64,000 nucleotides of DNA from Escherichia phage PNJ-9: the sequence record PQ100635.1. The stretch is one strand, 5' to 3'. Positions within the stretch are counted from its first letter, which is position 1; every line of letters starts with the position of its first letter. Made by a program: the position numbers and the translations under genes. The notes below the pieces were generated by a model. It made no database searches. It saw only the letters and a list, made by a program, of their open reading frames with translations, and was not told the origin of the DNA. Shown here piece after piece: positions 39,953 to 59,065 of this stretch.

Positions 39953-40255
39953 ATGAAAACTTATCAAGAATTTATCACCGAAGCGCGAGTAAGTGCAGGT
40001 AAATTAGAAGCCGCTATAAATAAAAAGGCCCATTCATTTCATGATTTGTCCGATAAAGACCGTAAGAAACTTGTAAGCCTTTATATTGACAAAGAGCGTA
40101 TTCTCGCTCTTCCTGGCGCTAATGAAGGTAAACAGGCCAAGCCTTTGAATGCTGTCGAAAAGAAAATTGATAACTTTGCTTCTAAATTCGGTATGTCTAT
40201 GGATGACCTTCAGCAAGCGGCTATCGAAGCAGCTAAAGTAATTAAAGGTAAATAA
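39953..40255 (+). CDS. internal protein (IPII/IPIII-like)
   Basis: 100 aa beginning MKTYQEFITEARVSAGKLEAA; resembles T4 internal proteins as recalled. Confidence 0.6.
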   Translation: MKTYQEFITEARVSAGKLEAAINKKAHSFHDLSDKDRKKLVSLYIDKERILALPGANEGKQAKPLNAVEKKIDNFASKFGMSMDDLQQAAIEAAKVIKGK

Positions 40256-40368
40256 CAGTTTACTTTCTCCTAGAATTGTGATAGTATATTCATAATTACT
40301 TGGAGTGGTAAATACAGAAATGGACAATTCATAGGTCATTCCATAGCCCCAACCTTAAGAGAAACTAA

Positions 40369-40698
40369 ATGAAAACATATCAAGAGTTTATCACTGAAGT
40401 TACATTATCTGCGGAACAGAAAGCTGCTATCGAAGAAGCTAAAAATCCCAAAGTAACATATAAAGTAAATAGTAAAGGCGTTTTTGATGGCTTGGTTCAA
40501 GACCCTGAATTGAAAAAAGCTCTTTCTAAAACTAATGCGTACTTTGCTCCTAAATTTAACACAGCCGGCGTACTTATTGGATTGGATGTATTCAACTCTA
40601 AAGGTGTTCTATCTAATGCCTTTGGTTATGCCGCTAACAAAATTACCAAAGCCGCATGGGAATCCAATACCAAACAAGCTCAAAAGCCTAGAGTATAA
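40369..40698 (+). CDS. internal-protein-like capsid-targeted protein
   Basis: 109 aa beginning MKTYQEFITEVTLSAEQ. Confidence 0.6.
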   Translation: MKTYQEFITEVTLSAEQKAAIEEAKNPKVTYKVNSKGVFDGLVQDPELKKALSKTNAYFAPKFNTAGVLIGLDVFNSKGVLSNAFGYAANKITKAAWESNTKQAQKPRV

Positions 40699-40872
40699 TT
40701 CTTGCCTAATAAAGGGAAACGCAACCTCTCCTTATGAACGTCGAGTCCTCTGAGTGATGTACCTTTTCCAACCTGTAATAAGGTCGAGCCCAAGTGCGGT
40801 AATGGGTTTACATAGCGAGTCGAAGGACCTAACATGTGCCACGGAATGGCCCCAAACCTTAAGAGAAATAAT

Positions 40873-55075: not shown

Positions 55076-55488
55076 TGAGATATAGCCTTCGTTGTTTTAT
55101 CGCAGCTTTAGTTTTTGCTATTATTCCATTCATTTGGAACAGCCAGAATACTTACATGGAAACTAAAGTAATTCCTGTGGAGGTAGTGGAATTAATCTCA
55201 GGCCAATCTACAGGAAAATATTCTAAATTGGAATTTATTGCAGTTTATAAAGATGAACAAGGTCGAGTTTTTGACAGGCATGTATCACCGTCGTTTTATA
55301 CGCTTCTGAATAAAGGTGATACGATAGCTATAGAAATTCGTGAGATGGATATCAAACAAACTACTAAAGATAACTTGATTTGGTTCTTTGGTACAGTGTT
55401 GTTGGTTTCTATCTGTATCACAGGTTTTATTACATGTATTGTATTTGGCATTGCATATTTAATCGATGAAAGGAAAAATAATGTTTAA
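55075..55488 (+). CDS. membrane protein
   Basis: 137-aa ORF with N- and C-terminal hydrophobic helices. Confidence 0.5.
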   Translation: MRYSLRCFIAALVFAIIPFIWNSQNTYMETKVIPVEVVELISGQSTGKYSKLEFIAVYKDEQGRVFDRHVSPSFYTLLNKGDTIAIEIREMDIKQTTKDNLIWFFGTVLLVSICITGFITCIVFGIAYLIDERKNNV

Positions 55489-55744
55489 AGTGTACGGGTA
55501 CGACTCTACTATTCATAAATGCATTTATTGCGATAATGCGAAACGATTGCTGACTGTTAAGAAACAGCCATTCGAATTCATTAATGTTATGCCAGAAAAA
55601 GGTGTTTTTGATGATGAGAAAATTGCTGAGCTTCTGGTTAAGCTTGGACGTGAATCACAAGTCGGATTGACTATGCCTCAAGTGTTTGCTCCTGATGGAA
55701 CTTCGATCGGTGGCTTTGACCAACTACGAGAATATTTTAAATGA
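55481..55744 (+). CDS. nrdC: thioredoxin/glutaredoxin NrdC
   Basis: 87 aa MFKVYGYDSTIHKCIYCDNAKRLL...; CIYC redox motif; matches T4 NrdC as recalled. Confidence 0.85.
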   Translation: MFKVYGYDSTIHKCIYCDNAKRLLTVKKQPFEFINVMPEKGVFDDEKIAELLVKLGRESQVGLTMPQVFAPDGTSIGGFDQLREYFK

Positions 55745-56097
55745 CATATTCATTAAATCTTAAAGATTTCCAAGATGTATACGAAGTTTGTGCCAATGAA
55801 CTTGGTCCTGATGCTCCAACTATTATTGAAGTTTTAAATGTGCTCCCTTCATCATTAGCTTACGAAGCCAAATCATGGGGTTGGAACGACACTGTCGTTC
55901 GTGATGACCTTTACGTCCTGATGAACGATATGATGCTTAAAAAGGCAGAACCGGTTGCACCAATGGTTACCATTACCGTTGAAGAATATAATCGCCTGCA
56001 AGCCATTGAAGAGCTTCTGTGGAACATTGAATGTGACCTGCCATCCGGACTAGAATCCTGGATTGATTATGAAGAGCTCAATAAACTCCGGGGTTAA
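55741..56097 (+). CDS. hypothetical acidic protein
   Basis: 118-aa ORF overlapping the nrdC stop. Confidence 0.5.
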   Translation: MTYSLNLKDFQDVYEVCANELGPDAPTIIEVLNVLPSSLAYEAKSWGWNDTVVRDDLYVLMNDMMLKKAEPVAPMVTITVEEYNRLQAIEELLWNIECDLPSGLESWIDYEELNKLRG

Positions 56098-56225
56098 ACC
56101 GTGGTATTCGGCTCGATGGGAGACAGTCGAGCCAGACGTCGAAACAGTTTACAATGACGAAGAAACGTGTTATGATGAACCTTCAATAAATGAATTAATT
56201 GATATGGAAATGGGAAGAGATTATT

Positions 56226-56396
56226 ATGCAAGTTAAATTATTGTACCGTTTATTAAAAAATGGCAAGCATGATTGGTATTTGCTTATTAAAACCGATCCG
56301 AATTTTTTCTCTGGACAACCATTTACAGTTCGTCCTACTAAACGTCAGCTTCGCAAAGCTAAACGTTCCCATCGTAACTTTTATAGAGAATATTGA
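56226..56396 (+). CDS. small basic protein (RPTKR tail paralogue 1)
   Basis: 56 aa from ATG 56226; C-terminus FTVRPTKRQLRKAKRSHRNFYREY. Confidence 0.4.
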   Translation: MQVKLLYRLLKNGKHDWYLLIKTDPNFFSGQPFTVRPTKRQLRKAKRSHRNFYREY

Positions 56397-56397
56397 T

Positions 56398-56811
56398 ATG
56401 AATATTTCTGAAACTCGCGGTAAATGGTTCAAGATTGTTAAAGAAGACGAAGAACTCCAAGATAAGTTTCCTGAATTAAAGAAAGATACGATCATCAAGG
56501 TAATTGGTACTACTACCGAAGATGGTTATGGCGACCATGGCATTATCGAAGTGATGTTGAACACAGGTGAGAAACTTTGCATCTATGACCGTGATACTTC
56601 TCTTTGGTGCTTCTGGGAATCCCATTCAATAGATGAACTCGAAGAAATTGACCAAGTAGTTTGTGATGGTGGACTTGGCGAATTCGAAGGTGAACGTATT
56701 TCTTATGCTTTAGCTAAATTAGCCGCCCAAGAAAATAATGACGGTTATGAAGGTAATCTGATGCAAGCCGCAGCGGAATACATTGAATATTTAGAAAGAC
56801 GTTTAAGTTAA
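56398..56811 (+). CDS. hypothetical acidic protein
   Basis: 137 aa from ATG 56398 (MNISETRGKWFKIV...). Confidence 0.5.
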   Translation: MNISETRGKWFKIVKEDEELQDKFPELKKDTIIKVIGTTTEDGYGDHGIIEVMLNTGEKLCIYDRDTSLWCFWESHSIDELEEIDQVVCDGGLGEFEGERISYALAKLAAQENNDGYEGNLMQAAAEYIEYLERRLS

Positions 56812-56820
56812 GGGCTTATT

Positions 56821-57000
56821 ATGAAAACTGCATTATTTTTTGGCGAAAGAACAAACGGTCAAAAATCTTGGAAATTTGTTATAATTGGTGCTCCAAACAA
56901 TCCGAACATGAGGACTTCAATCATTTCGGTAACACGTCCTACTAAAAGAATGATTCGCCAATACAAACGTTTCCATCGTGACTTTTATAACATTTATTAA
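56821..57000 (+). CDS. small basic protein (RPTKR tail paralogue 2)
   Basis: 59-aa ORF (below the ORF-track cutoff); C-terminus SVTRPTKRMIRQYKRFHRDFYNIY parallels the 56226 product. Confidence 0.4.
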   Translation: MKTALFFGERTNGQKSWKFVIIGAPNNPNMRTSIISVTRPTKRMIRQYKRFHRDFYNIY

Positions 57001-57002
57001 AT

Positions 57003-57032
57003 TATAAATACCCTTATCTAATATGGTAAGGG
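57003..57032 (+). promoter_or_regulatory. T4-type late promoter (TATAAATA) plus SD-containing hairpin upstream of gene 49
   Basis: Exact TATAAATA 57003-57010; inverted repeat CCCTTA (57011-57016) / TAAGGG (57027-57032) whose downstream arm overlaps the gene 49 SD. Confidence 0.55.
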
Positions 57033-57038
57033 TTTATT

Positions 57039-57512
57039 ATGTTATTATCTGGCAAATTATACAAAGAAGAAAAACAAAAATTTTATGATGCACAGAATGG
57101 TAAGTGTCCTATTTGCCACCGTGAATTAGACCCTGATGTTCAAGGTAACCATCTTGACCACGACCACGAATTAAACGGGCCAAAAGCAGGTAGAGTTCGT
57201 GGGTTACTCTGTAATCTGTGCAACGCAGCAGAAGGCCAAATGAAGCATAAGTTCAACCGTTCCGGTCTTAAAGGACGTGATGTCGACTACCTCGAATGGC
57301 TTGAAGCTCTTCTTGCTTATTTGAAACAAGATTATTCTGATAATAATATCCATCCTAATTTTGTTCCAGACAAAACTAAAGAGTTCTCAAGACTAGGTAA
57401 AGAGGAAATGATGGCTGAGATGCTTCAAAGAGGATTTGAATATAATGAATCTGATACCAAAACACAATTAATAGCTTCATTCAAAAAGCAGCTTAGAAAG
57501 AGTTTAAAATGA
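57039..57512 (+). CDS. 49: endonuclease VII (Holliday junction resolvase) gp49
   Basis: 157-aa ORF MLLSGKLYKEEKQKFYDAQNGKCPICHRELDPDVQGNHLDHDHE...; near-identical to T4 gp49 as recalled. Confidence 0.9.
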   Translation: MLLSGKLYKEEKQKFYDAQNGKCPICHRELDPDVQGNHLDHDHELNGPKAGRVRGLLCNLCNAAEGQMKHKFNRSGLKGRDVDYLEWLEALLAYLKQDYSDNNIHPNFVPDKTKEFSRLGKEEMMAEMLQRGFEYNESDTKTQLIASFKKQLRKSLK

Positions 57513-58046
57513 AAATTGAAAAAGAAATTGAAGGATTAATTCATAAAACTAATAAAGATCTTTTGAACGAGAATGCTAATAAAGATTCTCGTGTTTTTCC
57601 AACTCAACGGGACCTTATGGCTGGTATTGTGTCTAAGCACATTGCCAAAAATACGGTCCCGTCTTTTATTATGAAAGCACATGAAAGCGGAATTATCCAT
57701 TTCCATGATATTGATTATTCTCCTGCTCTTCCATTTACTAATTGCTGTTTAGTCGATTTAAAGGGGATGCTTGAGAATGGATTTAAATTAGGCAATGCTC
57801 AAATTGAAACGCCTAAATCGATTGGTGTTGCTACTGCAATTATGGCACAAATTACTGCGCAGGTTGCTTCCCATCAATACGGTGGAACTACATTTGCGAA
57901 TGTAGATAAAGTCCTTTCTCCTTATGTTAAACGCACCTACGCAAAACATATTGAAGATGCAGAAAAATGGCAAATCTCTGATGCGTTGAATTATGCCCAA
58001 TCTAAAACAGAAAAAGATGTCTATGACGCGTTCCAGGCGTATGAGT
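57509..58046 (+). CDS. nrdD: anaerobic ribonucleoside-triphosphate reductase NrdD, exon 1
   Basis: ORF from ATG 57509; predicted 5' splice site after T58046, where exon ATGAGT pairs with the intron guide GCTCAT ending in a U-G pair; the downstream stop is intron-encoded. Confidence 0.75.
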
Positions 58047-58257
58047 TAATTTAATTCAGGCTCATGTAAAACCGGTCTAAACGGGGAACCTCTCTAGTAG
58101 ACAATCCCGTGCTAAATGTTCTTTTGAACTAAATGCCTAACGACTAACCGTGATGAATGTAGCGGTGTAGAATAGAAGCTAATGCTATTCGAAACGGCCG
58201 GCATCGAAAGATGAAGATATAGTCTAATCTGCATGGCGACATGCAGCAGTCATCTTG

Positions 58258-58265
58258 TATAAATA
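58258..58265 (+). promoter_or_regulatory. T4-type late promoter (TATAAATA) inside the intron, upstream of the endonuclease ORF
   Basis: Exact TATAAATA 30 nt upstream of ATG 58295. Confidence 0.55.
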
Positions 58266-58294
58266 AGATTATCTTATGAATACGAGGTGAAACA

Positions 58295-59065
58295 ATGAAA
58301 TGGATAAAAAGACGTTGTACTAAAATAAAAGATAAAGACGCATTTACATACTTAGTTAAGTTTTCTAATGGTGACATTTATATCGGTTATAAAAAATTTA
58401 GAACAATTAAAAACAAGCCCACAAACTGGAAAACTTACACAACGTCATCTAAGTATATAAATGAACGCTTAAAAACTGATACACCTACTAAATGGATAAT
58501 TTTAAAAACATTTGATAGTTATAAAGATGCATTAAAACATGAAGAAGAGGTCATACGTAAATATTTTTATAGCAAAAAATGTTTAAATAAATCCATAGGC
58601 GGTAAAAAGTTTTATAAGCATCCGGATACTGAAGAACATATTCAAAAATTAAGAGATGCTCATAAGGGTAAAGTGTTATCCGAATCTCATAAAAACAATA
58701 TAAAATCTTCTGTAGCTGAATATTATGCTAAAAACGGAAGATCTAAGGAACATGTGCAAAATAATATCAATAGTCGAAAAAGTAAAAAACAAGTATCGAT
58801 AAAGCTTAAAAATAAAACTTTTAGAAGTTTTAAAAAAGCAGCGGAATATTTAAATTGCACTGAAAGTGAAGTCGAAACTCATCCTCTTGTTTTGAGTATT
58901 AAGACTACTATTCATAAAGTTCCTGAATATGTGGTTGTTGACGGTATTAAGTATACGTCTTATATAGAAGCAGCTAAAGCGCTAAATTTTCATCCTAGCA
59001 CTATAAAAGAACGTTGCATATCTATGGACTATCCAAATTTTGTTGTTTCATATAAACGGGCATGA
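58295..59065 (+). CDS. intron-encoded GIY-YIG homing endonuclease (I-TevII-like)
   Basis: 256-aa basic ORF inside the intron; GIY-YIG-like motif TYLVKFSNGDIYIGYKK; position matches the T4 nrdD intron endonuclease. Confidence 0.7.
   Translation: MKWIKRRCTKIKDKDAFTYLVKFSNGDIYIGYKKFRTIKNKPTNWKTYTTSSKYINERLKTDTPTKWIILKTFDSYKDALKHEEEVIRKYFYSKKCLNKSIGGKKFYKHPDTEEHIQKLRDAHKGKVLSESHKNNIKSSVAEYYAKNGRSKEHVQNNINSRKSKKQVSIKLKNKTFRSFKKAAEYLNCTESEVETHPLVLSIKTTIHKVPEYVVVDGIKYTSYIEAAKALNFHPSTIKERCISMDYPNFVVSYKRA

Follow-up and report, generated by a model that had tools for sequence, protein, structure and literature searches.

The 64-kilobase (kb) window analyzed here, a stretch of the genome of Escherichia phage PNJ-9 (sequence record PQ100635.1), carries two small open reading frames (ORFs), A and B, that bracket an acidic gene upstream of gene 49. 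Coordinates and strands are those of this window and all comparisons were computational. The results firmly support that ORFs A and B are genuine paralogous genes under selection, belonging to a catalogued family restricted to T-even phages, and that the segments coding their basic carboxyl termini (tails) are recombination substrates that behave as direct repeats. The acidic gene is recognized as pin, whose predicted product PinA is an inhibitor of the host Lon protease. The genome comparisons also firmly support that A, B and pin do not form an obligate partnership.

The DUF7279 paralogues

ORF A (56226-56396, + strand; RB69ORF089c) codes a protein of 56 amino acids (aa) with an isoelectric point (pI) of 10.8, while ORF B (56821-57000, +; RB69ORF087c) codes a protein of 59 aa with a pI of 11.4. 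Their net charges at pH 7 are +10.7 and +9.6, respectively, and their carboxyl termini read ...FTVRPTKRQLRKAKRSHRNFYREY (A) and ...SVTRPTKRMIRQYKRFHRDFYNIY (B). The two proteins are 36% identical over their full length (pairwise BLASTP, expect value (E) 4e-11). Both match the Pfam family DUF7279 (PF23945; model of 53 positions, gathering threshold 24.5 bits), with scores of 54.5 bits over model positions 1-53 for A and of 53.8 bits over positions 4-53 for B, and both match PHROG 3272 (E 5.8e-27 and 1.8e-30, respectively; profile positions 1-59 of 59 covered). The tail motif (K/R)-P-T-K...R..K(K/R)..R.(F/Y) is common, in the alignment, to proteins of PP01, JS98, RB69, S16 (gp48.1 and gp48.2) and Merlin (gp79). 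A preliminary description of this DNA had reported two small basic paralogues with a shared basic carboxyl terminus and had advised homology searches with the tail motif. The coordinates and termini that it gave are exact, and the searches found relatives that carry the motif, distant members included. Scanning all six frames with the motif and with profiles revealed no third DUF7279 copy in the window. The small ORFs had no match in NCBIfam or to PF10465, and neither matched a toxin or antitoxin family.

As genetic elements the two ORFs are ordinary: Pfam and PHROGs already list the family, and GenBank contains these very proteins as hypothetical proteins. A full-text literature search retrieved no paper on these ORFs or on DUF7279, its sole match being an unrelated Aeh1 ORF. 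Note that in the RB69 record NC_004928 ORF089c is frameshifted at the NGK codons (...LLKKWQT versus ...LLKNGK...; L012 1443-1638) and is annotated as a product of 38 aa, the frameshift reflecting an error in sequencing or else a genuine pseudogene.

AlphaFold2 models built with a small family alignment predict for both products a three-stranded antiparallel sheet on which an amphipathic carboxyl terminal helix is packed (beta3-alpha). The strands span residues 2-9, 15-22 and 31-36 and the helix residues 42-58 in the ORF B model (predicted local distance difference test (pLDDT) 86.4), the corresponding elements being 2-9, 15-24, 27-33 and 39-55 in the ORF A model (pLDDT 80.7). According to sequence periodicity, the hydrophobic face of the helix is formed by I45, Y48, F51, F55 and Y56 (numbering of B, here and below), and the opposite face by K42, R43, R46, K49, R50 and R53, with R39 at the N-cap. 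A stripe composed of K/R39, T41, K42, R46, K49, K/R50 and R53 is conserved throughout the family and persists in the S16 and Merlin members, which are ~20% identical. Foldseek found nothing below E 1 in the PDB. High-probability matches in BFVD were solely to uncharacterised small proteins of the T-even phages CBH8, S16 and Merlin, and a sequence search of the PDB gave only chance matches to designed repeat proteins.

ORF B-like sequences are present in 358 phage records and ORF A-type sequences (at least 80% identity) in 145 (tblastn). These matches come from T-even phages of Escherichia, Shigella, Salmonella and Yersinia and from one Proteus phage record; additional DUF7279 matches were found in Citrobacter and Enterobacter phages. 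The A type is confined to a subset of Mosigvirus genomes. Between pin and gene 49, Tequatrovirus PP01, Dhakavirus JS98, Mosigvirus SF and Moonvirus Merlin each have an orthologue of ORF B and, since a DUF7279 gene is found there in four genera, the order pin-DUF7279-49 is taken to be old. More divergent members are gp48.1 and gp48.2 of S16 (Gelderlandvirus), which score 42.4 and 41.8 bits, above the DUF7279 threshold, and gp79 of the Citrobacter phage Merlin (Moonvirus; E 9e-13 with the family's own profile). A HMMER scan of 1.84 billion cluster representatives returned three full-length clusters, two fragments and one ankyrin-repeat false positive (P0008, the second-best match, rejected as a relative), but neither distant relatives from cellular organisms nor any informative fusion to other domains. 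A word-indexed search of 5.8 billion proteins retrieved near-identical T-even sequences only, and 3 loci only were found in IMG/VR. To judge from these searches the family is very narrow.

The B-type genes are under purifying selection. Their ratio of non-synonymous to synonymous substitution rates (dN/dS) is 0.05-0.25, whether Mosigvirus sequences are compared with one another or with those of other genera, in a sample of orthologues from four Mosigvirus, two Tequatrovirus and one Dhakavirus genomes. Between genera the synonymous sites are saturated.

pin and recombination at the locus

The gene between ORFs A and B (56398-56811, +) codes a protein of 137 aa with a pI of 4.3 and a net charge of -17 at pH 7. 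The protein matches Inhibitor_I24 (PF10465) with 160.2 bits over model positions 2-136 of 136 (gathering threshold 27 bits) and phrog_2167 with E 4e-51, and it is annotated as Pin in JS09 and RB69. Since the central gene is pin, its acidity requires no special explanation; moreover, the gp49.1 homologue encoded upstream is also acidic (pI 4.05), so that acidic proteins are not peculiar to the flanked position. The preliminary description had correctly placed the acidic gene between the two small ORFs, and had suggested that the charge pairing could reflect nucleic acid binding proteins with an acidic partner or inhibitor. As an obligate pair this idea did not hold, because each gene is found without the other: 24 phages lacking pin at the locus keep a chimeric DUF7279 gene, and pin is often found without DUF7279. 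The partner idea is further weakened by PinA having a known target of its own, Lon. The biochemistry of Lon ATPase and proteolysis inhibition comes from T4 PinA only, as far as the account of Hilliard et al. (1998) cited in PMC8835725 extends.

Genomes that have pin without DUF7279 include T4, T6, wV7, G2133 and ECML-134, as well as Karamvirus UFV01, Moonvirus KM16 and Marfavirus (Marfa), and in all of these pin directly precedes gene 49. The pin gene itself shows several variant forms. A longer reading frame of 183 aa (56260-56811, +), which extends across ORF A, was rejected as the Pin coding sequence, the Pin homologues and the SF gene (without A) starting at the methionine at 56398. The long form is annotated in AlbertHofmann (bas47_0186) and in NHEP10, so that ORF A is omitted there; it is probably a misannotation. 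The Pin alleles of the window (~56650-56690) and of AlbertHofmann (L019 ~1165-1215) are distinguished by a 12-nucleotide (nt) indel and a divergent patch (QVVCDGG versus SADIADVLGSK) in the linker between two conserved parts. The JS98 Pin (L005 1029-1504) is split and permuted: orf78, corresponding to model positions 88-136, precedes orf77, corresponding to positions 3-74, which suggests a tandem duplication followed by deletions.

Four classes of locus organization were found in Mosigvirus, with at least one DUF7279 copy in every locus examined. The arrangement A-pin-B is found in this window, RB69, JS09 and WFK. In the second class, A-pin, ORF B is deleted; the deletion is precise in AlbertHofmann while NHEP10 retains a 36-nt 3' remnant. 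The third, pin-B without A, is represented by phage SF, which has no counterpart of window positions 56209-56379. A simple microhomology deletion was considered for this absence of A and rejected, as the junction does not fit. In the fourth class pin is missing from the locus and a single chimeric gene combines an A-type body with a B-type end; a junction-spanning query identified it in 28 records that correspond to 24 distinct phages.

The chimeras locate the recombination events. The crossover lies in a shared CATCG in 348Ecol098PP and in a shared ACTTTTATA in phiE142, both sites falling inside the 55-nt tail-coding segments of ORF A (56331-56385, +; RPTKR...HRNFY) and ORF B (56935-56989, +; RPTKR...HRDFY), which are homologous and 80% identical in DNA sequence. 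Two different crossover points imply that pin was deleted at least twice by recombination within these segments. The codon usage of the tails points in the same direction. The same codon is used at 12 of the 13 degenerate residues shared by the A and B tails, while 5.8 +/- 1.7 matches are expected from simulations based on the codon usage of the window itself (P(>=11 matches) = 0.003); the comparison of ORF B with its PP01 orthologue yields the same codon at 8 of 15 residues versus 7.0 expected. This excess of synonymous identity indicates that the A and B tails are being homogenized, which would fit ongoing recombination between them.

Related events have shaped the locus outside Mosigvirus. 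T4 PinA is 161 aa long, compared to 137-152 aa for Pin of the other phages examined. Its final 15 residues, MIQQYKRLHQMFYNT, align with the end of the PP01 B-type protein, MIRQYKRLHRMFYNT, with 45 of 48 nt identical at the DNA level, while the body of the B-type gene is missing in T4. The Pin-tail fusion is found in 365 records. Among six fused tails, five changes are non-synonymous (R/Q, M/K, Q/R, H/N, Y/F) versus one synonymous, and all six have Q in place of R53, a residue invariant in the family, whereas the preceding 30 Pin residues are invariant. A "Rosetta-stone" reading of the fusion was rejected because the fused tail evolves in this relaxed manner, and the tail on T4 PinA is most plausibly a decaying relic of a B-type gene. 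The PinA literature that was searched contained nothing on the PinA carboxyl terminus.

In some Tequatrovirus genomes the fused Pin is followed by an intact B-type gene; for PYPS2T and EC101 this co-occurrence is deduced from match coordinates only. In the IMG/VR contig IMGVR_UViG_2974787500 (L009 2480-2600) ~25 nt of the pin 3' end, ACTCAAA(T/A)TTCTTTTTCTGAC, are duplicated between the Pin-tail fusion and an intact DUF7279 gene, with CTTGAAA microhomology at the junction, which indicates an unequal crossover between T4-type and PP01-type arrangements. Phage S16 has an intact DUF7279 gene, coding gp48.1, after the gp49.1 homologue. In the S16 gp48.2 annotation, residues 5-18 (from the second methionine, MSLVNKVFEIIEDD) are identical to the amino terminus of CGG4-1 Pin, and the remainder is the carboxyl terminal half of a Merlin-type DUF7279 protein. 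This composition identifies gp48.2 as an in-frame Pin-N::DUF7279-C deletion fusion (in the S16 region 40065-40758). The protein encoded between them, gp48.3 (116 aa), is not recognized as Pin by Pfam. The related phage CGG4-1 has, in this order, a gp48.3 homologue, an intact pin and gene 49, and of the small gene only a ~25-nt 3' remnant is left in the intergenic stretch before gene 49 (L026 1930-2020). Deletions akin to those that removed pin produced both the T4 and the S16 fusions, and the locus evidently behaves as a hotspot for unequal recombination.

Gene order and neighboring genes

The 2.2-kb locus is 100% identical to that of Escherichia phage PNJ-6 and 99.5% identical to that of phage vB_EcoM_JS09, which assigns the source of the window to Mosigvirus, as an RB69/JS09-like T-even phage. 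The order on the + strand is nrdC, an ORF of 118 aa, the gp49.1 gene, ORF A, pin, ORF B, gene 49 and nrdD. The string from the gp49.1 gene to ORF B is tightly packed. The 3' end of the gp49.1 gene (56069-56236, +; 55 aa; phrog_2382, E 1.5e-28; annotated as gp49.1 in JS09 and RB69) runs 11 nt into ORF A, and the gaps that follow on either side of pin are of 1 and 9 nt.

The string lies upstream of the late promoter of gene 49, as the preliminary description had noted: the T4-type motif TATAAATA, read from the sequence (57003-57010, +), starts 2 nt past the ORF B stop codon. The Shine-Dalgarno sequence of gene 49 is part of a hairpin (57010-57033, +) identified by a terminator scan. Gene 49 (57039-57512, +), coding endonuclease VII, was identified from the annotation of identical or near-identical records. 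The arrangement of late promoter and hairpin before gene 49 is also kept in T4 and PP01. Such a device reportedly limits translation of gene 49 from early transcripts, and it may have the same regulatory role here. A promoter scan of 55300-57700 gave no evidence for a dedicated promoter, with 10 sigma-70-like sites versus 7.9 +/- 2.9 expected.

The ORF of 118 aa (55741-56097, +) is composite. Its carboxyl terminal part, 55 residues long, matches phrog_3402 (E 3e-32; labeled "antitoxin from a toxin-antitoxin system"), a module that exists as a stand-alone gene coding 54-56 aa in PP01 (PP01_087), Klebsiella phage K65 and S16 (gp50.1). This module also has a weak, sub-threshold Pfam match to T7 gp5.9, a RecBCD inhibitor (E 0.016), and the DNA of the ORF is split into two ORFs (092c and 091c) in the RB69 annotation. 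At the other end of the locus, the nrdD frame stops at 58054 (nrdD region 57509-59065, +) and is followed by an ORF of 256 aa (58295-59065), at the site where T4 has the I-TevII homing endonuclease in the nrdD group I intron. The region looks like the same intron and endonuclease arrangement as in T4. In 348Ecol098PP (L006 2181-3002) a gene coding a "putative endonuclease" of 273 aa, which is not there in the window, is found between gene 49 and nrdD.

Possible functions and relation to known systems

We tentatively favor, at somewhat less than even likelihood, a role for the products of A and B as redundant early accessory proteins that bind a polyanion, most likely nucleic acid, independently of PinA. 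On a small and very basic domain, the one-sided Lys/Arg stripe of the models is most simply read as a polyanion-binding surface. The conserved stripe would be the working surface of both proteins, which would act in the infected cell on a polyanionic target, most likely RNA or DNA, and would do so without PinA. Redundancy between A and B would be extensive, given that in natural Mosigvirus genomes either copy can stand alone, the two can coexist, or a single chimera can replace them. Several points weigh against this proposal. A basic stripe on a single face could equally dock onto an acidic protein, and the adjacency of DUF7279 and pin in four genera, together with the S16 fusion, makes a Lon-related role conceivable. 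The redundancy of A and B is deduced from natural variants. Furthermore, the gene is wholly missing in T4, T6 and many other phages, so that any function is dispensable under laboratory conditions.

The main alternative, though unlikely, is that the proteins are protein-directed inhibitors or anti-defense factors whose basic helix docks on an acidic surface of a host protein, for instance one with a defense or housekeeping role, the patchy occurrence of the genes reflecting host-specific selection. The restriction of the basic residues to one helical face would suit such docking. The neighborhood is one of small host-interaction genes (pin, the gp49.1 gene and the ORF with the PHROG "antitoxin" module), and the frequent gain and loss among close relatives is typical of accessory counter-defense genes. 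However, searches of Pfam, PHROGs and NCBIfam gave no match to a defense-related or anti-defense family, and a net charge of about +10 in proteins of 56-59 residues would be expected more of nucleic acid binders. Rather improbable is a module linked to Pin and Lon, in which the small proteins would be pseudo-substrates or adaptors that engage Lon, or Lon-sensitive proteins protected by pin. It would explain the flanking of pin, and is in line with the tight packing, with the order pin-DUF7279-49 shared by Tequatrovirus, Mosigvirus, Dhakavirus and Moonvirus, with the in-frame Pin-tail fusions of 365 records and with the Pin-N::DUF-C fusion of S16. The DUF7279 carboxyl terminus is, in addition, aromatic-rich, as are Lon degrons such as the SulA carboxyl terminus, a resemblance of value as a lead only. 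This alternative is weakened by the natural uncoupling of the genes (24 phages retain the small gene after loss of pin at the locus and many keep pin without it) and by the relaxed evolution of the fused tail, with five non-synonymous changes to one synonymous and without R53. Adjacency is also weak evidence because T-even gene order is generally conserved, and the S16 gene between the intact DUF7279 gene and the fusion is not detectably pin.

A more elaborate form of the Lon hypothesis, which we regard as very improbable, holds that the conserved, aromatic and basic carboxyl terminal helix is a Lon-engaging element and that the string 49.1-A-pin-B works against Lon as a module of several parts, the small proteins cooperating with PinA as pseudo-substrates or tethers. 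If this were true, T4 PinA would be a natural fusion with its own tether, all published PinA biochemistry would have been obtained with a chimeric protein, and Pin of the PP01 or RB69 type would need the small protein for full Lon inhibition. Finally, the possibility that the ORFs are non-functional, either as decaying remnants or as DNA repeats kept solely for their place beside the regulatory region of gene 49, is essentially excluded by the selection signal. Deletions are indeed frequent and often leave only a 3' remnant by the late promoter (T4, NHEP10, CGG4-1), and ORF A is frameshifted in the RB69 reference. Nevertheless, the dN/dS values of 0.05-0.25 were obtained across genera with saturated synonymous sites, the frame is intact in hundreds of genomes and the fold is predicted with confidence. 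Moreover, AlbertHofmann has an intact promoter and hairpin without the whole gene, tail included, so that the tail is not needed in cis.

What is new for DUF7279 is the predicted fold, the evidence for selection, the distribution and the finding that the tails serve as sites of recombination. The tail relic of T4 PinA, the S16 fusion and the repeat-mediated disappearance of pin from 24 natural isolates are, as far as we found, apparently undescribed, and are of specialist interest. The PinA that has been studied, that of T4 (161 aa), would end in a 15-residue relic of a gene that T4 lost, which bears on the structure and mechanism of Lon inhibition. The at least 24 sequenced Mosigvirus isolates without pin at the locus provide isogenic-like material for asking what purpose Lon inhibition serves. 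As a tiny basic family of predicted beta3-alpha fold with at least one copy per examined Mosigvirus locus, DUF7279 is a reasonable candidate for an early function directed at nucleic acid or at the host.

Compared to the DUF7279/PHROG 3272 family as catalogued, ORFs A and B are no different: they have the same tail and the same T-even locus. PinA is the flanked neighbor, and the final 15 residues of T4-type PinA are homologous to the DUF7279 tail. The small ORFs do not resemble the PinA domain, PinA with its acidic pI of 4.3 differs from the basic DUF7279 proteins (pI ~11), and either gene occurs without the other. Type II toxin-antitoxin-like pairs also have a small basic product beside an acidic one in a tightly packed operon; in contrast to them, co-occurrence is here non-obligatory in both directions and the acidic gene targets Lon. 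T4 internal proteins are basic, packaged and expressed late, and have an amino terminal capsid-targeting sequence, MKTYQEFIAE, with a (L/I)-x-E cleavage site. The MKT start of ORF B suggested this class, which was rejected: the amino termini of the family vary (MQVKLLY in A, MNTKIIH in S16, MQIELKY in Merlin), residues 2-9 form predicted strand 1, and the genes lie upstream, not downstream, of the late promoter. Small nucleic acid binders with a basic helix, namely arginine-rich-motif peptides such as lambda N, and T4 DsbA, offer a functional analogy. Foldseek and PDB sequence searches found no sequence or fold relation of DUF7279 to proteins of this type. The likeness lies in the small size, the high positive charge and the Lys/Arg-rich helix, while in DUF7279 the basic residues are confined to a single face of the helix, which in the models packs against a sheet.

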